A stretch of DNA of 64,000 nucleotides, taken from positions 34,054-98,053 of the forward strand of contig DJWS01000008.1 of the NCBI GenBank assembly GCA_002441585.1. Direction: 5' to 3'. Numbering within the stretch: the first letter of the stretch is position 1; each line of letters opens with the position of its first letter. The DNA is from Candidatus Saccharibacteria bacterium UBA6224 (GTDB lineage: Bacteria > Patescibacteriota > Saccharimonadia > Saccharimonadales > UBA4665). The notes under the pieces are model-generated. The model worked only from the letters and a program-made list of their open reading frames with translations. It ran no database searches and was not told the DNA's origin. Below are positions 9,113 through 40,192 of the stretch, piece after piece. The translations under genes were made by a program, and so were the position numbers.

Positions 9113-11299
9113 GTGCAAGATTTATTAGTGGGGTTGAACCCGGAGCAACGCCGGGCTGTCGAGACGACCGAAGGGCCGCTCTTGATTCAGGCTGGTGCCG
9201 GGAGTGGCAAGACCAAGACATTGACACACCGCATTGCCCATATCATCGACAGCGGCAAGGCAACGCCCTATAACATCTTGGCCGTGACCTTCACGAACAA
9301 GGCAGCCAAAGAAATGCGTGCTCGGGTGGCCGAGCTGCTTGGCGAAAATGCCGACAATCGTAGTTTCATGCCTTTCATGGGAACATTCCACGGTATCTGT
9401 GTGCGTATGCTTCGCCAAGACGGCGAATACATCGGCATTCCCAAATCGTTCGTCATTTTCGATGAGTCCGATCGCCAGGCGGCCGTCAAGCAGGCCAGCA
9501 AACAACTAATGCTGGATGAAAAGAGTTTTCCGGCCAAGTCCTTATCCGGCATGATCAGTAGCGCCAAGAATGAAATGATGTCGCCTCAGGAATACGCCGG
9601 GACGGCCAATTCGCCAACCCAAAAAGCGGCCGCCCAAGTGTTTCCATTGTATGAAAGAGCGCTCAAGGATGCCGGGGCGTTAGATTTCGACGATCTTATT
9701 AGCCGCACAGTAGCCCTACTCAAATCATCGGACGAAGTGCGGACAAAGTGGCAGCGCCAATTCCGCTACATCATGATCGACGAATACCAGGACACTAACG
9801 AAGCCCAGTACCGACTAGTCAAGCTGCTAGTCAACGACAGCCGCAACATCGCCGTAGTCGGTGACGATTGGCAGTCGATTTATTCGTGGCGTGGTGCCGA
9901 TTTCCGTAATATCTTGAACTTCGAGCGCGATTACAAGGACTGCACGGTCATCAAGCTAGAACAAAATTATCGCAGTACCAAGCATATCCTGGATGCCGCG
10001 CACGCGGTCATCACCAAGAACCAACAGCGGAGTGACAAGCGATTATGGACGGCGGCGGGTGATGGTCTACCGGTCCAGCTACTGCAAGTGGCCAGCGAGC
10101 GAGTAGAAGGTGATGCCCTGATGCGGCGCATCAAGAACGGCGTCGATACCGGCCGGCGCCACTACCGCGAGTACGCGGTGTTGTACCGGACCAACGCGCA
10201 GAGTCGCAGTATCGAGGAGGCGTTCGTACACTACGGTATTCCTTACCGAGTGGTCGGTGGCGTGCGCTTTTATGATCGTAAGGAAATCAAGGACTTGGTC
10301 GCCTATCTGCGTTTGATTTTCCAGCCCGAGGACAGGGTGAGCTTCGAGCGTATAGTCAACGTGCCGGCCCGAGGGGTCGGTGCGAAAAGCCTGCTTAATT
10401 TCAACACTTGGCGGGCGTCGGAAAACCTGCAGTTGCAAACGGCCCTGACGCAAGCGGGTGATTGCCCAGGCCTGACGCCCAAGGCCAGGCAGGCACTGCT
10501 GGAGCTTGGCGACATGCTGCAGGCGCTCCGTGAGGTCATGTATGACACCAGTGTGTCGGGGTTGATCGATTCCTTGCTACGACGTATCGACTACCTGCGC
10601 TTTTTGGACGATGGCACGCCGCAGGGTGAGGCACGACAGGAAAACGTCAAGGAACTTTTGAGCGTTGCACAGGAATATCAAGACATGGGGCTTGAAGGAT
10701 TTTTGGAGGAAGTTGCTCTGGTCAGTGACCTGGATGGGGCTGACTTCAATGGCGACGCCGTGACACTCATGACCTTGCACGCTGCCAAAGGTTTGGAATT
10801 TCCGGTCGTGTTCATGGTTGGGCTGGAGGAAACTATCTTTCCGCACAGCCGAGCGCTGTACGACCAGTCTGAGATGGAGGAAGAGCGTCGGTTGTGCTAC
10901 GTTGGCATGACACGGGCTCGCGAGGAGCTGTACCTGACGTGTGCGACAGCTCGCATGTTATATGGCGGTGTCCAGCACAATCCTCCTTCACGATTCCTCA
11001 GCGAAATAAATGCTGATTTCGTGCAGACCAATCCGTTCGGCGAGGTCGGCCGCGGGTTGGATTACGGGTTTGGCAAATCCCAGACTTTGTTTGGTGGCGA
11101 TTCTCCTAGTCCCAGCGCGCCCACGAGTAACGAACCGCGCTACGTGCCCGAGCTTGATGAAGGCGACGCCGTACGACACCCACAGTTCGGCACAGGTACG
11201 GTAGTAGAAATAGACGGTGACAACGCCACCATCTATTTTCGTGGCAAAGGCACCCGCAAGCTCAATACTGCTTTCGCTCCTCTCGAAAAACTGTCTTGA
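9113..11299 (+). CDS. pcrA: ATP-dependent DNA helicase PcrA/UvrD
   Basis: Walker A AGAGSGKTKT, DEYQDTN, LEQNYRS, TLHAAKGLEFP, YVGMTRAR. GTG start lies 6 nt after TGGTAAAAT (9098-9106). Confidence 0.9.
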   Translation: MQDLLVGLNPEQRRAVETTEGPLLIQAGAGSGKTKTLTHRIAHIIDSGKATPYNILAVTFTNKAAKEMRARVAELLGENADNRSFMPFMGTFHGICVRMLRQDGEYIGIPKSFVIFDESDRQAAVKQASKQLMLDEKSFPAKSLSGMISSAKNEMMSPQEYAGTANSPTQKAAAQVFPLYERALKDAGALDFDDLISRTVALLKSSDEVRTKWQRQFRYIMIDEYQDTNEAQYRLVKLLVNDSRNIAVVGDDWQSIYSWRGADFRNILNFERDYKDCTVIKLEQNYRSTKHILDAAHAVITKNQQRSDKRLWTAAGDGLPVQLLQVASERVEGDALMRRIKNGVDTGRRHYREYAVLYRTNAQSRSIEEAFVHYGIPYRVVGGVRFYDRKEIKDLVAYLRLIFQPEDRVSFERIVNVPARGVGAKSLLNFNTWRASENLQLQTALTQAGDCPGLTPKARQALLELGDMLQALREVMYDTSVSGLIDSLLRRIDYLRFLDDGTPQGEARQENVKELLSVAQEYQDMGLEGFLEEVALVSDLDGADFNGDAVTLMTLHAAKGLEFPVVFMVGLEETIFPHSRALYDQSEMEEERRLCYVGMTRAREELYLTCATARMLYGGVQHNPPSRFLSEINADFVQTNPFGEVGRGLDYGFGKSQTLFGGDSPSPSAPTSNEPRYVPELDEGDAVRHPQFGTGTVVEIDGDNATIYFRGKGTRKLNTAFAPLEKLS
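11243..11292 (+). repeat. 50-bp direct repeat, copy 1 (inside pcrA 3' end)
   Basis: Identical to 11383-11432. Confidence 0.95.
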
Positions 11300-25651: not shown

Positions 25652-26791
25652 ATGTCTACGCACCGGGTGTATCTAGATCATGCGGCCGCGACACCCGTCG
25701 CGCCGGAAGTGCTAGCAGCCATGCAGCCATTTTTTGGCGAGCTTTTTTATAATCCTTCAGCGACTTACCAAGCGGCTCGATCGGTCGCTCGAACTCTGCA
25801 AGACGCCCGAGCTCGAGTGGCCGCTATCCTAGGCTCGCGAGCTAACGAGGTCGTTTTTACGGCCGGTGGCAGCGAAGCTAACAATTTGGCCGTCCATGGC
25901 GCCATGCGCCCGTTATCTGGTAAGAACGTGGTGGTCAGCGCCATTGAACATGACTCCGTCTTGGAGGCGGCCAGACGATACGATGTCCGTGTCGTGCCCG
26001 TGGACAAGCGTGGCATCGTCGACCTGGCTGCCCTTGATAAGCTAATCGATGACGACACGGCGCTGGTGAGCATCATGTACGCCAACAACGAGATCGGCAC
26101 TATCCAGCCAATACGTGATATCTCACAAATAATCCAGCGCAAACGTTCGGAGCGGAGCAAGGGTGGCCTGCCACTCCTGTTTCATACCGACGCCGCCCAA
26201 GCCAGCAATTATTTGGATTTGCATGTTGCTCGTCTGGGCGTTGATATGATGACTCTCAATGGCGGAAAGATTTATGGTCCAAAGCAGAGTGGCTGCTTGT
26301 TCGTGAAGGCCGGGGTCATCTTACAACCGATTGTCGACGGTGGCGGCCAAGAGATGGGGCTTAGGAGCGGCACGGAGAATGTCGCAGCGGCTGTCGGATT
26401 TGCCGAGGCCTTGGAGCTTGCCGTAACGATACGCCACGATGAAGTAGAGCGTCTGCAAGGCCTGCAGCGACGATTGATTGACGGAACCCTTAGGGCATAC
26501 CCGTCCGCCAGGCTCAACGGCACACGCAACAAGCGATTGCCGAACAATGTCCACGTGACATTTCCCGGTATCGATAACGAACGCTTGCTAATACAACTTG
26601 ATGAGCTAGGGATTATGGCCGCCGCCGGTTCGGCCTGCAGTGCCAGCGACGATGAGCCGTCTCATGTATTGGGCGCTCTCGGGCTTAGTGATGAGCAAGC
26701 GCGCAGTTCCGTCCGCATGACGCTTGGTCGAACGACGACCGAGCAGGATGTTGACTACGTCATGACAGTGCTCGCCAAATTGCTCGCCTAG
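25652..26791 (+). CDS. cysteine desulfurase (NifS/IscS class V aminotransferase)
   Basis: YLDHAAATP, HTDAAQ, the PLP Lys region LNGGKIYGPK, SGTENV, and the active-site loop AAGSACSA. Confidence 0.88.
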   Translation: MSTHRVYLDHAAATPVAPEVLAAMQPFFGELFYNPSATYQAARSVARTLQDARARVAAILGSRANEVVFTAGGSEANNLAVHGAMRPLSGKNVVVSAIEHDSVLEAARRYDVRVVPVDKRGIVDLAALDKLIDDDTALVSIMYANNEIGTIQPIRDISQIIQRKRSERSKGGLPLLFHTDAAQASNYLDLHVARLGVDMMTLNGGKIYGPKQSGCLFVKAGVILQPIVDGGGQEMGLRSGTENVAAAVGFAEALELAVTIRHDEVERLQGLQRRLIDGTLRAYPSARLNGTRNKRLPNNVHVTFPGIDNERLLIQLDELGIMAAAGSACSASDDEPSHVLGALGLSDEQARSSVRMTLGRTTTEQDVDYVMTVLAKLLA

Positions 26792-26832
26792 AGCGATACA
26801 GCCTCAAATATTCGTGTATACTCGTAATCAAG

Positions 26833-27684
26833 ATGCTCACGCTTATTCGTCATAGCCTCCGCATTCTCGCTCTTGCCGCGCTGGTGGGCTTGTCGATGGT
26901 CGGCCTTGTCGGGGCTGCCAACTCGAGCACGCGGGCACCAGTAACTCAAAGTTATGGCACTGATGATACTTTGCAAAAGGGTATGCTGGTCCGAATCAAC
27001 GCCAAGGACAGCGCCAAGGTCAGCATCCTTAAGCAGGATGAGAGCGACAAGATGCACGGTGTCGTCGTGTCTGCCAACGATGCGGCACTATCGCTCACCG
27101 GCAATCCAGACAAGCGGCAGGTTTATGTGGCGACATTCGGCAAGTACAACGTTCTTGTCAGTACTCAGAATGGCCCCATCAAAATCGGCGACCTGATCAG
27201 CATATCGACCCTGAACGGCATTGGCATGAAAGCTGACGGTGAGGAAAAGATGGTCCTTGGCAAGGCGCTGACCGCTTTTGACGGATCGGATGCTGAAGGC
27301 ACGGCTAGTCTTACCGACGGAGAAGGTAAAAAGAGTACGGTCTCGCTAGGACGTATCAGCGTTCAGGTATCGGTCCAGAGTAACCCTTTGCAATCTGCTG
27401 GGCTGCCGAGTGCCTTGACCCAATTTTTGAGCGATATCGGTTACTCGGTAACCAAGAAAAACGTCAGCGTCGCGCGCCTCTACTTGGCGACTCTGATATT
27501 GCTGGTGGCCTCTATCGTATCTGGCGTCATGCTCTTCAGTGCCGTGCGCAGCACCCTGGTATCCATTGGTCGTAATCCGCTGGCCAAGCAGGCTATCGTG
27601 CGCAGCATGTTCCAAGTGGTCATCACAAGCTTGATTATTTTCATTATTGGCGTCTTTGGAGTATATTTACTACTAAAGCTTTAG
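26833..27684 (+). CDS. secreted-domain protein with C-terminal F-type c-subunit-like hairpin lacking the carboxylate
   Basis: Signal peptide, ~180-aa beta-rich domain, then two TM helices joined by SIGRNPLAKQ. Lies in the atpE syntenic position upstream of atpF. Confidence 0.6.
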   Translation: MLTLIRHSLRILALAALVGLSMVGLVGAANSSTRAPVTQSYGTDDTLQKGMLVRINAKDSAKVSILKQDESDKMHGVVVSANDAALSLTGNPDKRQVYVATFGKYNVLVSTQNGPIKIGDLISISTLNGIGMKADGEEKMVLGKALTAFDGSDAEGTASLTDGEGKKSTVSLGRISVQVSVQSNPLQSAGLPSALTQFLSDIGYSVTKKNVSVARLYLATLILLVASIVSGVMLFSAVRSTLVSIGRNPLAKQAIVRSMFQVVITSLIIFIIGVFGVYLLLKL

Positions 27685-27817
27685 CTTTTTGAACCTTCCG
27701 ATGCGTGCAGATTTCAGGTGTATCGTGGCCCAAGCCTACCAATACCCTGATTTTTGAATGGCTCATGAGAGGGTATTCGTGTAGTAAAGCGATTGAAAAT
27801 ATGGTGGGAATACAAAT

Positions 27818-28441
27818 ATGACAATCTGGTGGCTCGTTCTTATACTGGCGTTCATCGGCGCGACAGGGATTGGTTTTATCTGGATTGCAGTGTCACTCGG
27901 TCGCGTCCAGGGTGGCGGCAAACGTAGTCTCGGACAGTCTATAGAGGAGGCCGCCGAGGATGATGTCGAGCATATCTTCAACGACGAATTCCGTGAGGAG
28001 CTACGCAACCGCGGGCGTTTACACTTCGAGAAAATCATCGGCGAGAATGCCATGTTCCTGCAGCAGGACCTCAGGCTGACAACCAGTCAGCTTAACGAGT
28101 ACATGAAGGCAGAGATTACCCAGAAGCTCAAGGAAGAATTCGCCAAATACGAAGAATCCATCATGGACGCCAAGCAATTGGCCATCGAAGCCATCGAGAA
28201 GACCAACACCGCCATCGATGAGCAGCGCAAGGCGCTCGGTGAAGAGCTACAGCGCGAGGTTTCCGAACAAAAGATCCATCTCATCAAACACTTCGAAGAC
28301 AACATGGCTGACGTTATTAATCACTATGTCTTGGCCGCCATCGGTAACCAAATCGACCTGACCGACCAGCTGGAATACATCCTGACGGAGCTGGAGGCGA
28401 ACAAGGCGGCCATCGTCGAGGATATCAGCAATGGTGCCTGA
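27818..28441 (+). CDS. atpF: ATP synthase subunit b-like (single TM + long coiled coil)
   Basis: N-terminal helix WWLVLILAFIGATGIGFIWIAV followed by a charged helical region. Position in the operon fits. Confidence 0.65.
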   Translation: MTIWWLVLILAFIGATGIGFIWIAVSLGRVQGGGKRSLGQSIEEAAEDDVEHIFNDEFREELRNRGRLHFEKIIGENAMFLQQDLRLTTSQLNEYMKAEITQKLKEEFAKYEESIMDAKQLAIEAIEKTNTAIDEQRKALGEELQREVSEQKIHLIKHFEDNMADVINHYVLAAIGNQIDLTDQLEYILTELEANKAAIVEDISNGA

Positions 28442-28934
28442 GCAGCGGCCGGGTTTAGTGCTACCGCCGTTAGTCGTCGGCGTCGCTGATATCATGCGGC
28501 TTAGGCGCGAGCTTGATGCTTTGTATGAATACTTGCACCAAGCGGCCCTGCGCGAGATTCCGGCCGATCAGCTGAAGTTACCCAAGACCAGTCGCATACT
28601 CGACGAGCTGGCATTGGCCAACAAGATCAATCTGCTCGATCGCGACCAGTTCGAACGCGTAGCGACAGAATTGGAGCGTATCCAGGACACGGCGCCCCAG
28701 ATACACATATCATTCTCGACCGACCCGTCCTCGGCTTTCGTGGGTAAGATTGTCGATTGGCTACGTCAAAACGTCCACCCTGGTTTATTGATACAGATCG
28801 GGCTGCAGCCGACGTTGGCGGCCGGTTGTCTGGTCCGGACCACCAACAAACAATTTGATTTAAGTTTGAAACAGCACTTCAAGGCGGCCCGGCCGATGCT
28901 GGTCAAGAAACTGCAGGAAGGTTTGCCGGCATGA
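28431..28934 (+). CDS. atpH: ATP synthase delta/OSCP-like subunit (divergent)
   Basis: The C-terminal pattern [28 protein letters not shown] parallels delta (..liGG..v.vgd...D.S....l). Overlaps both the b and alpha genes. Confidence 0.5.
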
Positions 28935-30702
28935 GTGCCGATAATCGACACTACGAACGCCTGGTTGCTGCCGGTAAGCCCGTCGGCGAGGTTGTTGCCG
29001 TCGATCGCTTCCTGATTCGCGTCCGCGGCTTGCACCCGGTCAATACCCATGCACTTGTCATGTTCGCCGATGGCACCAAGGGTCTTGTCCATCACGTGCT
29101 GGAGGATTACGTAATCGTTCTTCATTTGGGCACAAGCAATATCGTGCCTGGCATGACCGTCGTTCAGCAGCACGATGAACTGGTTAGCAAGGTCGGCAAG
29201 GATTTCATCGGTCGAGTCATATCGGTCAACGGCGAGCCACTTGACGGTGGCGAGCCTATCGGTGCTGATGCCGTCGCGCCGGTCTTCCACAATGCTCCTA
29301 AGTTGTTCGAGCGCCAGGCGCTAGATACCCAGCTTGAGACAGGCATCATGATATTGGACGAGCTTTTCCCGCTGGTCCGGGGTCAGCGCATGGCTATCTT
29401 GGGCGACAGCAAGGCCGGTAAGACTACCATGGCGCTGCAACTGGCGCTAAACCAGAAGAACACCGACGTCATCAGCGTGTATGTCCTGATTGCCAAGCGC
29501 CGCAGTGATGTCGACGCCCTTATTAGCCGCCTCCAAGCCAACAATGCCCTAGAATCGGCCATCGTCATCGTCTCGACAGCCTTCGAATCGTTGGTCATGA
29601 GTTATCTGGCGCCTTATGTCGGCTGTGCCATCGCCGAATATCTCTGGCAGCAGTGCGACCGTGATGTCTTGATCGTCTACGACGACCTGACCAGTCATGC
29701 CCAGGCATATCGAGAAATCTCGCTATTGGCTGGAACCAGCCCGGGTCGCGACAGCTACCCTGGTGATATGTTTTATTCGCACTCCTCACTACTGGAGCGT
29801 GCCGGACGAATTTCACGCAACCAAAAAACACTTACCGCCCTGCCAATCGTGCTGGCCAACGACGGTGATATAACCGCTTTCTTGCCGACCAACGTCATGT
29901 CTATTACTGACGGTCAGTGGATATTGGACATGGCTATCTTCAAGGATACTATGCGCCCGGCCGTCAGCGCTGGACTGAGTGTTACTCGTATTGGTGGTGT
30001 CGGCCAGAACGACAAACAAAAGGAACTGGCCGCCCAAACTATCAAGGTGCTCAATGCTTACCGCCAGGCCCAGGAATATTCCCGCTTCGGTTCCGAGTTG
30101 TCCGATGAGGCCAAGCGTACGCTGCACATCGGTGCCCAGCTGTACAAGTTGATGAACCAAGCCCCCGACGAGACATACTCCATCCTACAACAGACGGCGA
30201 TGTTCGATATCGTACTTAATGAGAGTGGCGACCAGGTGATAGACGTGCCAGTTATGAAAGAAGAGGCCAAGAAACTGCTCAAAGAGGGCAAGTACACCGA
30301 TCACGATTCATTCACCGAGGCGCTGCGCAAGGTCTGTCACATTGCCCCACCGACGCCCGCAGAGTCGATTGATGAAGGGGTAGCCGAGGCTCCAAAATCT
30401 GCCGAACCCGACTCGTCTTCTAGCGCCAAGGGTGATACCAAGACCGATGCAGCCGATAAGTCAAAGGACGAAGCCGGAAATGCTGACAAATCAGAAGAGC
30501 CGGAGCAATCCAAGCCTGAAGATGCCAAATCTGATGAAAGCCAAGGAGCATCGGGTACCATGCTTCCAACGCCACCCGGTCAAGAAGTGCATCCGGACAA
30601 ACCGGATGCCCCAGCATCGACCGAATCCAACGAAGCTGAAGACGCTACTCACGAGGACCATGACAAAGAGTCAGCCGATAAGCAGCACGAGGAAGCCCAC
30701 CG

Positions 30703-30706
<4 letters not shown>
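28931..30706 (+). CDS. atpA: ATP synthase alpha subunit with ~110-aa acidic C-terminal extension
   Basis: [53 protein letters not shown]. The tail is rich in D/E/K/S/P. Confidence 0.88.
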
Positions 30707-32867
<2,161 letters not shown>

Positions 32868-32874
32868 GGCGGCC

Positions 32875-33204
32875 ATGGTAAAACGAACCGACGCCAGTAC
32901 CGGCAAGATCATCGATGACGGCAAGACCGTCGAGGATCCCAGCGTAGATGAGAATGGGCGCAAGCTCCTCAAGGTCAAGGTTTATTCGCCGTTCCACCTA
33001 TATTTCGATGGACCGGCTTATAGCATTACTGGCGTCAACCGAACCGGTGAGTTCGATGTTCTGCCGCAGCACCACAATTTCATAACTCTGCTCGAACCGT
33101 GCGAATTACGTATCGAAACTCAGCGCGAAACCGAGCCGATAAAAATCTCTGGCGGAGTCATGCATGTGCGTGGCGATAGCGTGGTCGTCTTTTTGGACGT
33201 CTAG
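32875..33204 (+). CDS. atpC: ATP synthase epsilon subunit (beta-sandwich only, no C-terminal helices)
   Basis: LKVKVYSP...GEFDVLPQHHNFITLLEPCELRI...ISGGVMHV matches the epsilon N-domain pattern. Confidence 0.7.
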   Translation: MVKRTDASTGKIIDDGKTVEDPSVDENGRKLLKVKVYSPFHLYFDGPAYSITGVNRTGEFDVLPQHHNFITLLEPCELRIETQRETEPIKISGGVMHVRGDSVVVFLDV

Positions 33205-33210
33205 CCTGGC

Positions 33211-34203
33211 CTATCCCAGGACGATGTAGTCAAAACCGAATGAACTGCTGGCGGGTGCGGCATTGGTCGTACAAACACTAAAGCTGCTGCTTGTCCGGTT
33301 GACGTAATAACCCAAGGATCCAGCTGCCGAACCGATAGGCGTGACAACGACGTGGGGCGTGCTGCTGAAGGCGCTAGAAAAGTTCACGGTGATGAAACAG
33401 CCAGCTCCAGGGCTGCTGCCGGTGTTAATCTTAATGGAACCGGACGTATCAGACCCGCTGACGGATGTCGTTCCGCCGCCACCAAGTGCCGATCCGCTGC
33501 TGCGCGAAGGTGTTGCGCCGCCGGCCACGATGTGATGTGTCAGAGTCAAGTTACTGCTGAGCTGGAGCGATCCGGTGGTAATCCGGCTGACCGATAGCCC
33601 GCCGTTGAAAGTTGTACTGCCATTGACGCTCAGCGCACCCTGGAGTGTTGTCTGGCCTTGCACGGCCAGGTTATGAGCGACCGATAAATCATTAGAAATA
33701 CTGACGTCCTGCAACACACTCTGCCCGCCGACGTTGATGCCTGTTAGTGACAATTGGTCGCCAACGACCAATCTGCCGGCAACCTCTACGTCACCGCGGA
33801 GTAAGACCGAGCCGTCAAAAATGGCGTTGCTCTGTACGGTCAAAACTTGCTTGCTGTCGCCGACCGAGACATCGCTGTTGGCCAACTGCTTCAGGCTGTC
33901 AGTGGACAGGGATTGGGTTTTGATATCGCCGCTTCTGACGGTGTCTTTCTTGGTATTAAGATAATAAATCCCGCCACCACTACCCGCTAGCACCAGCAAG
34001 AAGATGAATGACAATAAATATATATTGACGTGGGATAACAGCGCGCCGAATCCGCCGCGCTTGAACCGCGCCGCCGGCCGCTCGCTCGGTGCCGCAGGTT
34101 GACTGTCGGTCGAAGAAGTGGAAGCTTGCTGTGGGGCGTCACTGGCTGGCGCTTCGAGCGATTCTTCCTCGTCCGGATTGTTGGGGGTAGGGTTTTGATC
34201 CAT
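33211..34203 (-). CDS. membrane-anchored protein with beta-helix-like repeat region (hypothetical)
   Basis: Acidic/Pro-rich N-terminus, one TM (IYLLSFIFLLVLAG), a repetitive V/L-x-G-x-L/V segment (bactofilin/polymer-like repeats), and a C-terminal Ser/Gly-rich domain. Confidence 0.55.
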   Translation of the reverse strand: MDQNPTPNNPDEEESLEAPASDAPQQASTSSTDSQPAAPSERPAARFKRGGFGALLSHVNIYLLSFIFLLVLAGSGGGIYYLNTKKDTVRSGDIKTQSLSTDSLKQLANSDVSVGDSKQVLTVQSNAIFDGSVLLRGDVEVAGRLVVGDQLSLTGINVGGQSVLQDVSISNDLSVAHNLAVQGQTTLQGALSVNGSTTFNGGLSVSRITTGSLQLSSNLTLTHHIVAGGATPSRSSGSALGGGGTTSVSGSDTSGSIKINTGSSPGAGCFITVNFSSAFSSTPHVVVTPIGSAAGSLGYYVNRTSSSFSVCTTNAAPASSSFGFDYIVLG

Positions 34204-34306
34204 GCTTGACTAATTACTCTTGTGCTTACTGTACATGATACAGCACCCGGGCGCTAAGCGTAAACGGATTGCCATCATTAGCTGTACAGGCTACAATGGC
34301 ACTACA

Positions 34307-35821
34307 ATGTTCCGAACAAAAACGCGAATCAAGAGATGGTTGAGTCTGGCGGCGCTAGCTTGCCTCGTCGCATTGGCGCCGGTCATGAGCGTGAGGGCGG
34401 TTTGCGACCCCAATGCCCAGACTTGCTCGAACAATTATCAAGTGACCGAATCGTTCTTTGGGGCGGGCGGCAGCCAAAACGACACATGCTCTGCCACCTA
34501 TTGCGCCAAGCAATCGGTCGGTGCCCTAGGGGTCGGACACACCGGCAGTTTCAATAGCTACCAGGGGGGTGTACTCGGTGATACGGCACCAGCGGCCTAT
34601 TGGCGCATGGGTGAGCTAACCGGTACGAACATGTTTGATATGACCGGCAACGGCCACAGCGGAACCTACTCGGGCGGATTCACGCTAGGTGCCACCGGCA
34701 TTCCCGCCATATCGGACGACTCAGCGGTTACCTTCAACGGTACTAGCGGCCTGAGCACGGTAGCCTACAACTCTGCCCTCGATTACAACTCCAGTGCCAC
34801 GCAGACGATAGAGCTGTGGTACAAGGGTACTCAAACTAGTTCGACCAATACCAAATCGGCCGTCCCGGGCTTGATTACCGCGAATACAGATGGCAGCAAC
34901 CAAAAATTCGTGGTCGGCTTGCTAACCAGCGGGGCGGTCTCGGTTGGCTACGGTACGGCCTATGCCGGCGTCAATGGTTCTACGGCAGTCAACGACGATG
35001 CTTGGCACCAAATCATCTGCACCATAGATTATTCCGGCGGATCGGCCGATATCGTCTTGTATGTCGATGGCACCGTGGATGCCTCGGGCACGGTCGCCAT
35101 GGACGGCGGTACGGGTTCGCCATCGATTACCATAGCCCAGAACCCGCAGGCCAGCGGTGGCGATGCCTACACGACCGGCACAATCGACGAGGTGGCGATT
35201 TACGGCAAAGTGTTGTCGCCCCAGCAGGTCACCAGTCATTACAAAGCTGGCACCACAGGCATCGGTTATCAGGCACAGGGCGGCTTCAATACCGATCGGT
35301 GGCCTTCACTGGAATTCATAGTGAATACCCCATCGGTCAATGTAGGAATCTTGAGTTCGGCCGAGACTCACGTCGGAACGGCGGAGTTCCAGGTCAAATC
35401 GTACTTGGCGCAGGGCTATCAAGTTCGCACCGAATCGGTAGGGCCGACAAGCGGTGGTCATACTTTCAGCTCCCCAGCCTCGCCAACCGCTAGTGCCGTA
35501 GGCACCGAGCAGTTCGGTATGAACATAGCTGCCAACTCTTGCCCCGGCACCGCACCGGGATCAGGTAGTGGTAGCTGCTCAGGTTCTTTGGGCCAGAGCC
35601 CATCACAAGAACCTGATGCTAGCTTTAGCTATGGTGTCGCAGCTCCCAACTACAACACGCCAGACTTATACAAATACGCCAACGGCGATACGATCGCTCT
35701 GTCCAACAGCAGCTCAGGTACCACGGTCTACACAATTAGCTACATCTTCAATATCACTGCAACTACCCCAGCCGGCACCTATACCATGAACCAAGATCTA
35801 GTCACTACCAGCACCTTCTAG
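34307..35821 (+). CDS. secreted protein: Cys-rich N-terminus, LamG (concanavalin-like) insert, pilin-like C-terminal domain ending ...PAGTYTMNQDLVTTSTF
   Basis: Signal peptide from ATG 34307, with TACAAT 34292-34297 lying 9 nt upstream. LamG pattern AYWRMGE..D.TGNGHSGTY...TIELWYK...DEVAIYGKVLS. Confidence 0.65.
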   Translation: MFRTKTRIKRWLSLAALACLVALAPVMSVRAVCDPNAQTCSNNYQVTESFFGAGGSQNDTCSATYCAKQSVGALGVGHTGSFNSYQGGVLGDTAPAAYWRMGELTGTNMFDMTGNGHSGTYSGGFTLGATGIPAISDDSAVTFNGTSGLSTVAYNSALDYNSSATQTIELWYKGTQTSSTNTKSAVPGLITANTDGSNQKFVVGLLTSGAVSVGYGTAYAGVNGSTAVNDDAWHQIICTIDYSGGSADIVLYVDGTVDASGTVAMDGGTGSPSITIAQNPQASGGDAYTTGTIDEVAIYGKVLSPQQVTSHYKAGTTGIGYQAQGGFNTDRWPSLEFIVNTPSVNVGILSSAETHVGTAEFQVKSYLAQGYQVRTESVGPTSGGHTFSSPASPTASAVGTEQFGMNIAANSCPGTAPGSGSGSCSGSLGQSPSQEPDASFSYGVAAPNYNTPDLYKYANGDTIALSNSSSGTTVYTISYIFNITATTPAGTYTMNQDLVTTSTF

Positions 35822-35940
35822 GCGGCTGTGGATAACTAGGCAGTAATATTGGCACAAAAGTATTGCACACGTAACCACTAGCGTGATATATTCACCTCAG
35901 GAATAACCCAAAACAAATAGTCGTAACAGGAGAAATAGAA

Positions 35941-37071
35941 ATGAAAAACATAAGAAGTGCTTTGCAGCGACCCCTGCATGCCATAGCCGCCCTGGCGTTT
36001 ATGCTGGGTACCGCAGGGGCTGCAGTATTGCCGGGGTTGGCCTCTGCCTACGGCAGCGTGAGTAGCCGTGAAATCAAGATAAGCTCGTCAGTACCCGGCG
36101 CCACCGGCGTTTCATACGCGGTTACGTTTACTCCAACAACGACAGCCCAAGAACTGATTGTCGACTTTTGTGGAGATACACCTCTGATTGGGGCAACTTG
36201 TGCGTTTGCGGGAGCATCTGTCCCGAACGTTGCAAGTGCAGTCGCTTCTACGGGTACACTTACTACACCTGGCACGGGTACGCCCAAGCACACTCTTCGT
36301 GTGACGGGCCTAACCATGACGGCGGCAACTCCATACACTATCACATTCACTGGCATGCAAAACCCGTCGGGTACGCAATCCTTCTACGCACGTATCCTTA
36401 CCTATGCCACGGGAAATTCATCGCAATACGTCCAGGCTGACACCACTGGTGCTGCAACCACTATCGGTGCCAATGTGGTCGATGCTGGCGGTATTGCACT
36501 CAGTACTGCCGCCACTATTAGCGTGACCGCACGCGTCATGGAGTCACTGAGCTTCTGCGTTTACAGTACCGCATGCGGTGACGTTCCAGCCGTCGAGATT
36601 GGTTCTGGCTCGCCTCCGGTCATTGATAGCTTGGCTGTCTATACGAACACCACTACACCGCTTAACTTCAGTCTCTCATCTAACGCCTCAAGTGGCGTAG
36701 TCATACGCCTCAAGGGTGGAATCCTCACAAGTGGTGCTAACAACATACCAGCAGTAAACGCAGGTGGTGGTACGGCAGGTGCTATCACTGCGGGTACGGC
36801 AGCCTTTGGCGTCCAGGTCCCGGCCACTACTGCAGGCGCAGTCGGTCAGGTAGATGCTGACGCCAACTACAGTGCCGCCTCCGGTTACGGTTTCGATACT
36901 ACGTCCGCCGACAACGTAACCACCACGTATGGCGATGTCTTCTGTGACACGAACAGCGCCCCACTAAACACTGCAATCGTGCCTATAACATACGGCGCAA
37001 CTGCAAACATCACCACGCCAGCCGGTGTCTACACTGCAACTCACCAACTGATTGCAACCGGCACGTTCTAA
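35941..37071 (+). CDS. secreted two-domain protein, paralog of 37088-38146; ends ...PAGVYTATHQLIATGTF
   Basis: AGGAG RBS and signal peptide. Shares DFCGDTPLIGATC with its paralog (FCDDTPLVGQPC). Confidence 0.65.
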   Translation: MKNIRSALQRPLHAIAALAFMLGTAGAAVLPGLASAYGSVSSREIKISSSVPGATGVSYAVTFTPTTTAQELIVDFCGDTPLIGATCAFAGASVPNVASAVASTGTLTTPGTGTPKHTLRVTGLTMTAATPYTITFTGMQNPSGTQSFYARILTYATGNSSQYVQADTTGAATTIGANVVDAGGIALSTAATISVTARVMESLSFCVYSTACGDVPAVEIGSGSPPVIDSLAVYTNTTTPLNFSLSSNASSGVVIRLKGGILTSGANNIPAVNAGGGTAGAITAGTAAFGVQVPATTAGAVGQVDADANYSAASGYGFDTTSADNVTTTYGDVFCDTNSAPLNTAIVPITYGATANITTPAGVYTATHQLIATGTF

Positions 37072-37087
37072 CACGTACAATAAGGAT

Positions 37088-38146
37088 ATGCGATTTGGTC
37101 GGCTTCTTCCTCGCCGCATACTCCCAGTCATACTCTTGGTCTCGCTTCTTCTCCTGGGAGCGAGGCCATTGCTGTTTCGCGCTCAGGCGGCTACATTTCC
37201 CAAGCGATCAGTTCAGCTCGGTAGTATTGTCGCGGGCGATACATCAAGCTACAAATTCGCCTTCATTGTTACTACACCAGGTGCCCAAGTGGGCTCTATC
37301 CGTTTCCAATTTTGCGATGATACTCCGCTCGTCGGGCAGCCGTGCAATCCGCCGACGGGCTTCGATGCATCCGGCGCAGTTCTCGTGGACCAGCAGAACA
37401 ATGCCGGGTTTACGATTGGCGCAGGTACGAATGCAAACACGATCGTCATCGGCCGCACACCGGCGATCGCGTCGATTGGTATGTCAACATATGATTTCTC
37501 CGATATCGTAAACCCGGCGTCTAGTGGCACATATTTCGTCAGGGTAGAAACGTTCGGCAGCAATAATGCCACGGGCCCTCATGTCGACTATGGTGGACTT
37601 GCGTTTGCCATGACAGAGCAAGTGACCATCAGTGCTGAAGTCCCGCCATTTCTACTTTTTTGCAACGGTGTAACGATAACTGGTTTTGATTGCACTACCG
37701 CTACCGGAGATTATATAAACTTCGGGGAATTCTCCACTTCGTCACCCCGGACCGGGACTACCCAGATGCTATTAGCAACTAATGCCGACGGAGGGTACAG
37801 CGTGACCGTACAGGGAACGACAATGCTCTCGGGAGTCAATAGTATACCGGCACTGAACGTTAATGACGTCTCACGCCCAGGCACAAGCCAGTTCGGCATC
37901 AATCTTCGTAATAACTCCGATCCTAATGTAGGCTCCGATGTCGCAGGGCCAGGAGTGGCCTCGCCGCGCCCTAACTATGCTATCCAAAATAGATACCGCT
38001 TCGTGTCGGGGGAGCAGATTGCATTCTCCACCACATCTGATGATTACCGCAAATACACTGTGACATATCTCGTGAATATCGCGAACGGCCAGCCAGCCGG
38101 CATATACGTCAGCACGCTTACCTACACGGCCCTAGCAACATTTTGA
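37088..38146 (+). CDS. secreted two-domain protein, paralog of 35941-37071; ends ...PAGIYVSTLTYTALATF
   Basis: Start at MRFGRLLP (AAGGA RBS) with a signal peptide. The inner block INFGEF...NADGGYSV.V.G...SG.NSIPAL...TSQFGINL is conserved with its neighbours. Confidence 0.65.
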   Translation: MRFGRLLPRRILPVILLVSLLLLGARPLLFRAQAATFPKRSVQLGSIVAGDTSSYKFAFIVTTPGAQVGSIRFQFCDDTPLVGQPCNPPTGFDASGAVLVDQQNNAGFTIGAGTNANTIVIGRTPAIASIGMSTYDFSDIVNPASSGTYFVRVETFGSNNATGPHVDYGGLAFAMTEQVTISAEVPPFLLFCNGVTITGFDCTTATGDYINFGEFSTSSPRTGTTQMLLATNADGGYSVTVQGTTMLSGVNSIPALNVNDVSRPGTSQFGINLRNNSDPNVGSDVAGPGVASPRPNYAIQNRYRFVSGEQIAFSTTSDDYRKYTVTYLVNIANGQPAGIYVSTLTYTALATF

Positions 38147-38214
38147 GCATATTGTGCAACCACTACCGTTTTGATACTATAAGTCCAACGTCTTAAGAGG
38201 GAATTAATAGGAAC

Positions 38215-39216
38215 ATGAAAAAACTTCAACAATTGCTCATGGCTGGGCTGGTATTAGGTGCTGCGGCTGTATTGGTAATTTCTGCTAACGTTTCGGCGGC
38301 AACAAGCAGTGGTAACGGGATGCGAGTATCACCCGTAAGAACTGACTTGGTCATGCAGCCGGGAGATTCTAAAACGATTAGTGTTTATGTCCAGAATGTC
38401 ACTAACGGTACAGAAAACTTGAGGGTCATCGCCAACGATTTTGTCGCCAGCGAAGATGAGAGTGGGGCTCCGGCGCTGCTTTTGAACGGAGAGGCCAACG
38501 ATAGGCACGGGCTAAAGAAATACATCTCAGCACCAGGAACATTGACCATTGAGGCCGGAAAGCAGAAGGAAGTCAGGGTGACGATTTCCATACCTAAGGG
38601 CTTGCCTGGCGGTGGCTACTATGGCGCCATTCGATTCGCACCGGCATCGACGAGCAGCACAGAAAACGCCAACGTCTCCCTCTCAGGAAGTGTCGGCTCG
38701 TTGATTCTTGTGAGAGTTCCTGGTGATGTCACGGAAAAAATGTCACTAGTCAGCTTCGATGCTAGGTCTAAAAACTCCAAGACCCAGGAAGATTCTGCCC
38801 GAACGGTCTTTACGTCCGGAAAGAATGTATGGGCTACGGTGCGTCTTCGCAATGAAGGCAACATCCAAGAGCAGCCATTCGGTAAGATTCTCTTCAAGAA
38901 AGGCAACACTACTCTAGGCACCTATGAGTTGAACGCCGGGGACCAGCCAGCTAATGTTCTACCAGATAGCATTAGGAAATTCAGTATTCAGCTCAAGGAC
39001 GTGGGCTCTTTTGGCAAATACACGCTCGAAGGTAATTTCGGCTATGGTACGGCAGGACAACTACTTTCAGCTAAAACCACATTCTACGTTATACCGGTAT
39101 ACATGATTTTTCTTGGTATCGGCATCGTAGCACTCATTCTGTTCCTTATCTTCGGTTTGCCGCGCTTGATCCGCAACTACAACAAGCGGGTGCTTCGTAA
39201 AGCCGGCCGTCGCTAA
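38215..39216 (+). CDS. DUF916/DUF3324-like cell-surface protein with C-terminal TM anchor
   Basis: Signal peptide. Two Ig-like modules (SPVRTDLVMQPGDSKTISVYVQN...IPKGLPGGGYYGAIRF; then LRNEGNIQEQPFGKILF...LPDSIRKFSIQL...FGKYTLEG). C-terminal TM plus a basic tail (RNYNKRVLRKAGRR). Confidence 0.6.
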   Translation: MKKLQQLLMAGLVLGAAAVLVISANVSAATSSGNGMRVSPVRTDLVMQPGDSKTISVYVQNVTNGTENLRVIANDFVASEDESGAPALLLNGEANDRHGLKKYISAPGTLTIEAGKQKEVRVTISIPKGLPGGGYYGAIRFAPASTSSTENANVSLSGSVGSLILVRVPGDVTEKMSLVSFDARSKNSKTQEDSARTVFTSGKNVWATVRLRNEGNIQEQPFGKILFKKGNTTLGTYELNAGDQPANVLPDSIRKFSIQLKDVGSFGKYTLEGNFGYGTAGQLLSAKTTFYVIPVYMIFLGIGIVALILFLIFGLPRLIRNYNKRVLRKAGRR

Positions 39217-39286
39217 CGAGGATGCCTTGGGGTGGTGGTCGTGAGTCCTTGTCGCCAGCCATCATCTCGGTTATGGTAGTAATAAG

Positions 39287-40192
39287 ATGATTACCACCCG
39301 ACGCATAGTCGCCTGTTGCCGCTCAGCTACGTTGGTGTTGCTGCTGGGACTTTTGGTGGCGCCGATTGGCTCGGTAGCCGCGATAGGCTCACCAGATCCA
39401 GAGCAGGGCGGGTCTGTCGGTCTGGAAGGACGTATCTCATCACCGCCGCCCACCCAAGCCGCCAGCATAACCACACCACGTAATGGTCAAGTCTTTGATT
39501 CGTCACCGATAACCGTAGCCGGCCTGTGTAAGACGGATTTGCTGGTCAAGGTATTTGCCAACAACGTGTTCGTCGGCTCGGTCCTATGTAAGAACGGCAG
39601 TTACTCTCTGCAGGTCGGACTGTTTAGTGGCCGGAATGACCTGGTGGCCCGGGTTTATGACAATCTCGATCAGGCGGGGCCCGATTCCAACCTTGTCAGC
39701 GTGACGTTCAACGATGCTAATTATGCGGAGTTCGGCACGCAACTGACCCTGACCAGCAATTACGCCCGTCGTGGCGCCAACCCCGGCTCTACCTTGACTT
39801 GGCCCATCGTCTTGAGCGGTGGCTCTCCACCCTATGCTATCAGTATCGACTGGGGCGACTCATCTGGTGCTCAGCTGCTTAGCCAATCATTTGCCGGCAA
39901 CATCACACTTTCACATGTCTACGAGACGGCTGGTATCTACACCGTAGTCATAAAGGCGACCGATCGCAACAAAAGTACTGCCTATCTTCAGGTCGTGGGT
40001 GTCGCCAACGGCGAGGCGAAGCAAGCCGCCACTGACACAGGCACGACTAACAAGGTCAGCGTAGCCCCGGAATGGTACTGGTTCTTGCCAATCGTGCCGC
40101 TGCTGATTGTGGCATTCTGGCTGGGTGGACGCAACGAACTGTATGTCATTCGTCGTCGCTTGGACCAAGTCCGCAACGCCAGCCGCGGTTGA
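39287..40192 (+). CDS. secreted Ig-like + PKD-domain protein with C-terminal TM anchor
   Basis: The PKD-like segment is ISIDWGDSSG...LSHVYETAGIYTVVIKATD. C-terminal helix WFLPIVPLLIVAFWLGG. Confidence 0.6.
   Translation: MITTRRIVACCRSATLVLLLGLLVAPIGSVAAIGSPDPEQGGSVGLEGRISSPPPTQAASITTPRNGQVFDSSPITVAGLCKTDLLVKVFANNVFVGSVLCKNGSYSLQVGLFSGRNDLVARVYDNLDQAGPDSNLVSVTFNDANYAEFGTQLTLTSNYARRGANPGSTLTWPIVLSGGSPPYAISIDWGDSSGAQLLSQSFAGNITLSHVYETAGIYTVVIKATDRNKSTAYLQVVGVANGEAKQAATDTGTTNKVSVAPEWYWFLPIVPLLIVAFWLGGRNELYVIRRRLDQVRNASRG

Follow-up and report, generated by a model that had tools for sequence, protein, structure and literature searches.

Rotary F-type ATPases are defined by the coupling of the F1 motor to an ion-conducting pair formed by subunit a and the c-ring. 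To our knowledge, the F1-like ATPases of Mycoplasma are the only documented exceptions to this coupling of F1 to ions, and one of them powers gliding. In these F1-like X0 ATPases, represented by the type 2 gliding motor of M. mobile (MMOB1660/1670) and by type 3 (MSC_0618/0619), a divergent set of alpha-, beta-, gamma- and epsilon-like subunits is combined with non-Fo membrane proteins, and ATP hydrolysis is thought to drive mechanical work at the surface, not ion transport. ATPase operons with unrecognizable a, b and c genes have also been described for WWE3 RAAC2 and OP11 (Kantor et al. 2013, PMC3812714), and ProAD reports 'non-catalytic' c/K subunits without the ion-binding Glu/Asp, 20 of the F/N-type and 41 of the A-type (PMC11738941). 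Within the Saccharibacteria, Southlakia epibionticum has one canonical, contiguous operon of the order AtpZ-a-c-b-delta-alpha..., and all of its ATP synthase components are dispensable for growth on the host (PMC10633639). The subject of the present analysis is a 64,000-nucleotide (nt) stretch of Candidatus Saccharibacteria bacterium UBA6224 (GenBank assembly GCA_002441585.1, contig DJWS01000008.1, positions 34,054 to 98,053 of the forward strand), hereafter the window, and in particular an F1 operon whose first open reading frame (ORF), at 26833..27684 (+), encodes a protein of 283 amino acids (aa). The product of this ORF and its homologues are referred to as X.

A large group of environmental Saccharibacteria possesses an F1 operon headed by X, and this operon may serve something other than ion movement. 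Relatives of X were found in 350 stretches by a scan of one genome per GTDB species and in 362 metagenome contigs of the Joint Genome Institute (JGI). The 1428 homologues recovered at E ≤ 1e-3 are all unnamed or 'hypothetical', and the taxon, where one is given, is Saccharibacteria. An exhaustive HMMER search with a profile of the C-terminal hairpin of X returned 731 clusters at 50% identity, the best 150 of which are all members of the X family. No description of X or of such an operon type in Saccharibacteria was found in the literature. Together with its F1 neighbors, X probably forms a new variant of the enzyme, uncoupled from ions and with an externally decorated, c-like membrane partner, a reading that is partly supported by the observations below.

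Hydropathy marks three hydrophobic segments in X, at residues 2-31, 210-246 and 253-283. An AlphaFold2 model of the full-length protein, built with 29 homologues (predicted local distance difference test, pLDDT, 82), places a helix at residues 2-21, beta strands between 37 and 183, a further helix at 194-207 and the two hairpin helices at 213-247 and 249-282. Both results agree with the first-pass annotation, which had read X as a signal peptide and a beta-rich domain followed by two hydrophobic helices joined by a short loop. The predicted Sec signal peptide spans residues 1 to ~28 (26833..26916, +), as judged from hydropathy and the first helix of the model; it presents a basic n-region, a hydrophobic core and the motif VGA-A, and is presumably cleaved. 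It is followed by an external beta-rich domain of ~150 aa (residues ~35-190; 26935..27402, +), assigned from Foldseek and from sub-threshold Pfam matches. Given the N-terminal signal peptide, both termini of X would lie outside the cell and the loop of the hairpin in the cytoplasm.

Turning to the hairpin itself, helix 1 (residues 213-245; 27469..27567, +), delimited by hydropathy, the models and a column profile, has its outer boundary marked by R215 and Y217 and its inner boundary by R239. The GxGxGxG packing motif, already reported missing, is absent from both its sequence and its column profile. The cytoplasmic loop G246-R247-N248-P249 (27568..27579, +) is identical in 289 of 289 family hairpins (200 non-redundant), which is conservation far beyond chance, and the ARQP/ARNP loop of c subunits falls on it in the correct register in hhalign. 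In helix 2 (residues 250-283; 27580..27681, +; from the alignment and column profile), the conserved positions are Q261, a polar residue at +14 from the loop Arg, F270, G273 and Y278-L-L-L. Leu267 lies at position +20 from the loop Arg, where c subunits carry their ion-binding Glu/Asp, and its codon (TTG, 27631-27633) was confirmed by direct reading. Since D201 is the final acidic residue of X, neither helix contains Asp or Glu, and position +20 is acidic in 0% of the 200 non-redundant hairpins. As noted at the outset, the hairpin thus has no ion-binding carboxylate.

The nearest described relative in shape is the F-type subunit c (AtpE, PF00137, COG0636). Like X, it consists of two helices of ~35 residues with the termini outside and a short cytoplasmic loop, and it shares with X both the R-(Q/N)-P loop and a place directly upstream of an atpF-like gene. 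The loop Arg and Pro are the sole invariant columns among nine diverse c subunits, and both are invariant in X. A model of the hairpin alone reached a pLDDT of 89, and its top 50 Foldseek matches in the PDB are exclusively F-type c subunits. The best of them, Chloroflexus 9itt_I, superimposes with a template modeling (TM) score of 0.90 and a root-mean-square deviation (rmsd) of 1.1 Å at 25% identity; overall, the c-subunit matches have TM scores up to 0.90, rmsd values of 1.1-1.5 Å and identities of 15-28%. Helix lengths, loop residues and AlphaFold2 models agree with the c-subunit topology that had been claimed. Unlike subunit c, X has no carboxylate at +20 or in the membrane core, no GxGxGxG and no significant profile match; it also carries a signal peptide and the external domain, and no subunit a gene adjoins it. 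Carboxylate-less proteolipids, including duplicated A/V-type K/c subunits and those in ProAD, resemble X in having a hairpin without the ion-binding Glu/Asp. Unlike X, these proteolipids are recognized by c/K profiles, have no external domain and lie beside a normal a or I subunit.

Sequence comparison gives a less decided picture than the fold. The ungapped alignment with the PS3 c subunit given in the first-pass annotation has 10 identities in 31 positions but is marginal as a pairwise match. Against composition-preserving shuffles, the Smith-Waterman z-score is 3.1 for PS3 (5 of 500 shuffles were as good), 2.7 for bovine c and 1.4 for E. coli c. The whole of X matches no family in Pfam or NCBIfam, and a search of PDB sequences with the protein gave nothing relevant. 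For the hairpin of the window, the only NCBIfam match is the N-ATPase c subunit TIGR03322, near full length at E=0.032, with a score of 14.8 bits against a cut-off of 130.85; another member of the family matches PRK07159, a subunit C, at E=0.039. Membership of X in PF00137 is not established, and the carboxylate and the Gly motif are both absent. The hairpin can be described as c-like and probably c-derived.

In Foldseek searches of the PDB, the external domain of X matches the Sf11 capsid (9ocb_J, E=1e-4) and also proteins of Borrelia phage BB1, HFTV1 and TW1; in BFVD, it matches decoration and fibre-anchor domains of predicted viral structures with E values down to 2e-9. Sub-threshold Pfam matches agree: of 29 members, 5 match XM1_gp53_minor_capsid, with a best value of 3e-4, and 2 match Phage_cement_2. 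On the predicted structure, the domain appears to have the fold of phage decoration/cement or fibre-anchor proteins. It is like the phage decoration/cement proteins (PF23982 XM1_gp53, PF09956 Phage_cement_2) in fold and, weakly, in sequence; unlike them, it is part of a secreted cellular protein, in which a membrane hairpin is attached to it. A scan of 2.9 million viral contigs yielded no relatives of X.

The first-pass annotation had placed X in the slot of atpE, immediately 5' of atpF-H-A-G-D-C. The downstream genes were confirmed as those for b-like, delta, alpha, gamma, beta and epsilon subunits, and X does stand where the a and c genes would be expected. The conservation of this position in related genomes, on which the proposal had been made to depend, was also found. 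Among the 145 loci in which X is followed by 900 nt or more, a b-like gene is directly downstream in 140 (including L092 and L093, where b abuts X), and all six of the genes from b to epsilon are present in 100 of the 105 loci that extend for 6.5 kb or more. The linkage of X to F1 holds down to 30% identity in X. From the X stop to the b start, the median distance is 32 nt. Of 81 gaps, 56 measure 40 nt or less, and a GGTGGG ribosome-binding site is all that they contain; distances of 16-40 nt are the rule in most lineages. In the window it is 133 nt, which is peculiar to this sub-lineage, and the remaining junctions of the operon are -11, -4, -4, -4 and +7 nt. Because the gap between X and b holds only a ribosome-binding site, X is the first gene of a seven-gene operon and, judging from this spacing, belongs to the ATPase operon at the transcript level across a deep clade. 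This tight spacing is a stronger argument for the link between X and F1 than gene order.

The gene after X encodes a b-like peripheral stalk with one N-terminal transmembrane helix and a long helix (27818..28441, +), as seen in an alignment of 20 lineages. Only 2 of the 20 members give weak ATP-synt_B matches in Pfam, and there is no NCBIfam match. Residues 53-89 (27974-28084), IFNDEFREELRNRGRLHFEKIIGENAMFLQQDLRLTT, are near-invariant in the 20 lineages and the transmembrane helix is variable, a pattern that suggests a specific partner for this block at the cytoplasmic face of the membrane. The block is far more conserved than in a normal b subunit. Next is a divergent delta (OSCP) subunit (28431..28934, +), identified by Pfam OSCP and by the NCBIfam delta model at E=0.003; all 15 delta orthologues match Pfam OSCP, the best at E=6.6e-5. 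Pfam, NCBIfam and alignment together identify the four remaining subunits. The alpha subunit (28931..30706, +), 37% identical to that of E. coli, keeps the P-loop Lys164 and the Arg finger R353 and ends in an acidic C-terminal tail of ~135 aa. This tail (~30296-30703) is of low complexity, rich in Asp, Glu, Lys, Ser and Pro, and has no equivalent in E. coli alpha; orthologues are 548-598 aa long, with tails of variable length. The gamma subunit (30703..31557, +) is 19% identical to E. coli gamma. Beta (31554..32867, +), at 41% identity, keeps GGAGVGKT, E185 and R186 and has NELSASD instead of DELSEED. Epsilon (32875..33204, +) consists of the beta-sandwich only, with an N-terminal extension of ~30 aa and without the C-terminal helical inhibitory domain.

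Alpha, beta, gamma and epsilon show clear Pfam domains despite scores that fall below the NCBIfam equivalog cut-offs throughout: 408.9 bits against 554 for alpha, 429.6 against 462.85 for beta, 94.4 against 194.45 for gamma, 45.5 against 67.25 for epsilon and 17.6 against 115 for delta. By its residues, F1 appears catalytically intact and unusually divergent. The alpha and beta subunits of the window also match the NCBIfam models of the Mycoplasma F1-like ATPases with 277-369 bits, against cut-offs of 520-850. Membership in that clade was rejected, the scores being below the cut-offs and below those of canonical atpA/atpD. Unlike the Mycoplasma systems, the operon of the window follows the canonical b-delta-alpha-gamma-beta-epsilon order and includes a genuine delta (OSCP), a b-like stalk and a c-like hairpin partner.

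Searches for a and c genes found none in the window, in the 10 kb on each side of it, or in 80 GTDB and 80 JGI loci with ~3 Mb of flanking sequence. In a c-subunit profile search aimed at the c subunits of Saccharibacteria, the matches listed were mainly cyanobacterial and plastid proteins. In this respect the operon resembles those of WWE3 and OP11, where F1 genes also stand beside membrane proteins without homology to known Fo in genomes of the candidate phyla radiation (CPR). As described, the latter are set apart by belonging to other phyla and by having three adjacent genes, and no external domain, carboxylate loss or family-wide analysis is described for them.

The X family is also represented by a second branch with a different genomic setting. 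Here, the gene order is FtsA-FtsZ-NrdR-RNR-IleRS-rplU-X-like, followed by surface proteins of 1100-3000 aa, which in three loci are beta-helix giants of 2000-3000 aa. The X-like gene lies at ~10001-10890 in loci L084, L085, L088, L089 and L170-L173, and at 7213-8040 in L086. The hairpins of the rplU-linked and F1-linked branches align in hhalign with a probability of 99.6%, and mutual information calculated on the hairpin alignment is dominated by the split into two subfamilies, not by contacts. A conserved Glu is present in helix 1 of the rplU-linked hairpin, 17 residues before the loop Arg and in mid-membrane, together with a Glu at +11, an Arg at +14 and a Trp near the C-terminus. The Glu of helix 1 occupies the register of E. 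coli c Ala24; in work by Miller, Oldenburg and Fillingame in 1990, the functional carboxyl of c Asp61 could reportedly be moved to position 24. Compared with c profiles, the rplU-linked hairpins reach hhalign probabilities of 20-32%, somewhat better than the F1-linked ones. One member of this branch (P0439, in the cluster of P0315) bears the IMG name 'F0F1-type ATP synthase membrane subunit c / vacuolar-type H+-ATPase subunit K' (COG0636) and has no ATP-synt_C match in Pfam. Of the two branches, only the F1-linked one is without a carboxylate.

In the reading that we tentatively favor, X provides the membrane part of an F1-b-delta ATPase that is not coupled to ions, and would join it through its c-like hairpin. 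X would stand in for Fo, and the F1 ATPase, though divergent, would keep a stalk while lacking subunit a. In c-rings, the R-Q/N-P loop docks the foot formed by gamma and epsilon, and the invariant GRNP loop of X could likewise face the cytoplasm and contact gamma/epsilon. Since there is no ionizable group in the membrane core of X and no a gene in the operon, translocation of H+ or Na+ would not be expected. With the catalytic residues of F1 kept and the inhibitory domain of epsilon lost, F1 most likely works in the direction of ATP hydrolysis. The torque or strain that it generates may then be taken up by an oligomer of X, presumably a ring, that displays decoration-like domains on the cell surface.

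Several observations weigh against this reading, beginning with the identity of the hairpin. The first-pass annotation had staked its interpretation on a match to the ATP-synt_C profile, and this expectation failed: no PF00137 match was obtained at E ≤ 10 with 21 hairpins, nor with 10 proteins of the rplU-linked subfamily. A hairpin profile run against PDB sequences likewise retrieved no c subunit at E ≤ 10. With hhalign, the F1-linked hairpins align to nine diverse c subunits at a probability of 8.9% (P=0.0037), over only 22 columns around the loop and in the correct register, and the probability drops to 2.4% when all 289 hairpins are compared with 76 c subunits. Moreover, helical hairpins may match c subunits rather unspecifically. 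In the structure-based annotation of Southlakia, the ECOD match assigned to VirB2-type pilins is likewise 'F1F0 ATP synthase subunit C', and for this reason a fold match alone is not specific for the hairpin of X. On balance, we consider descent from a c-type proteolipid reasonably likely.

Other objections concern the genomic context and the mechanics of the proposed complex. The absence of a and c covers ~84 kb of the source genome, and a separate atpB-atpE locus may lie elsewhere. The rplU-linked proteins are homologous to X over their full length (26-32% identity, same architecture) and have no ATPase gene within 10 kb, so the X family is not tied to F1 everywhere. The aminotransferase and surface-protein genes that flank the operon are as syntenic as the F1 genes, and gene order alone is therefore weak evidence for a link between X and F1. 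With respect to mechanics, the hyper-conserved block of the b-like protein could reflect a direct contact between b and X, and such a contact would speak against rotation; without a subunit a there is nothing obvious to hold a stator against a rotor.

Many of the same observations could be accommodated if X were an independent envelope protein, a hairpin-anchored socket or base for fibre-like surface proteins that is only co-transcribed with F1. The atpB and atpE genes would then lie elsewhere in a split operon, and the likeness to c would be generic. Such a role would suit the family members that lack an ATPase neighbor and stand beside giant beta-helix or fibre proteins, the six secreted or fibre-like proteins that follow the operon in the window, and an N-terminal domain with the fold of phage decoration and fibre-anchor domains. 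It would also fit the non-significant c-subunit profile tests, the structural resemblance of VirB2 pilins to c and the collinearity of the entire neighborhood in the clade. However, even where identity in X is as low as 30%, the two genes are still only 16-40 nt apart with nothing but a ribosome-binding site between them, and an invariant cytoplasmic loop is unexpected in a pure surface anchor. The operon of Southlakia, the only canonical one of Saccharibacteria examined, is contiguous, not split, and no a or c gene occurs in the ~3 Mb of flanks. The divergence of the F1 subunits, in addition, goes far beyond what is usually tolerated in a working synthase. We regard an independent envelope protein as somewhat unlikely.

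A bolder extension of the favored reading is that the complex acts as a transmembrane mechanical drive, in which F1, fuelled by ATP and with neither subunit a nor ion flow, turns a carboxylate-free ring of X whose external domains move or tension surface structures of these epibiotic bacteria, such as the neighboring fibre-like proteins. The Glu-bearing rplU-linked subfamily, encoded beside giant adhesin-like proteins, could in that case be an ion-binding version of this drive. We think this unlikely. Less probable again is that X derives from c and is static, serving as a non-rotating dock or regulator by which gamma/epsilon, or else the b-like stalk, is kept at the membrane and an ATP-driven push-pull is passed on to the external domain. 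The lack of a subunit a as a stator partner speaks for such a dock, as does the 53-89 block of the b-like protein, which could bind the equally invariant GRNP loop. The decoration-protein fold of the external domain, moreover, usually forms fixed trimers on capsids. Yet a full set of rotor (gamma, epsilon) and stator (b, delta) subunits is under selection in more than 350 species, which would be hard to explain without relative rotation. Finally, the idea that an ATP synthase is decaying here after the loss of Fo, with X an unrelated gap-filler, is highly improbable and was rejected: it would suit F1 subunits that are divergent and below family cut-offs and a canonical synthase that is dispensable in Southlakia (PMC10633639), but 100 of the 105 long loci have all seven genes intact and collinear, the catalytic residues are kept, and identities across the clade (52-98% for the b-like protein, a median of 68% for beta) point to evident purifying selection, not decay.

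Should a and c be truly absent, the operon would show that an F1 motor has been turned to non-bioenergetic work for a second time and independently, in a clade of at least 350 GTDB species in addition to the JGI contigs. If the favored reading is true, this case would differ from that of Mycoplasma in its kept stalks and in a partner that is shaped like c and extends to the cell surface. The entry 'F-type ATPase present' would then also have to be understood differently in metabolic reconstructions of CPR genomes, and the operon would offer a candidate for energizing surface structures in epibionts without a respiratory chain. A c-like ring without a carboxylate would be, in addition, a natural experiment. 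Should canonical a and c genes instead lie elsewhere, the finding shrinks to a new, widespread family of hairpin-anchored surface proteins with a phage-like domain.

The sequences upstream of X and of the b-like gene share a promoter-like element. The 10-mer TATTCGTGTA, followed by TACT, is found 15 nt before the ATG of X (26809..26818, +), and a second exact copy lies 35 nt before the start codon of the b-like gene (27774..27783, +). These are the only two exact copies in the window, both on the same strand, against ~0.1 expected by chance, and the closest relative has near-copies at both sites. In orthologous loci, a -10-like GCG(G/T)TATACT is present 8-20 nt before the X start codon. The duplicated TATTCGTGTA looks like an extended -10 promoter or a shared operator. 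Directly upstream of X lies a gene for a class V aminotransferase resembling cysteine desulfurases (25652-26791), which is kept in nearly all F1-linked loci at 46-84% identity; the promoter-like element sits between this gene and X.

Some remaining observations concern the taxonomic labels of individual loci and the genes that follow the operon. One F1-linked X (L043, an entry that also covers L159) is found on an NCBI contig of a metagenome-assembled genome labeled 'Candidatus Limnocylindria', and this contig is 100% identical to the JGI contig Ga0193742_1000106. The rplU-linked protein P0288 (from L085) comes from the same soil metagenome and carries the same odd taxon label. F1-linked and rplU-linked paralogues may therefore occur together in one mislabeled bin of Saccharibacteria. 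After the operon, the region 33211-40192 encodes six secreted or N-terminally anchored, Gly/Ser/Thr-rich, fibre-like proteins, and most related loci show this run in synteny. The first protein of the run (33211-34203, -) has a 30% match at ~19.6 kb in the 20,822-bp locus L088, near the 3' end of a giant beta-helix gene that lies downstream of the rplU-linked X paralogue.

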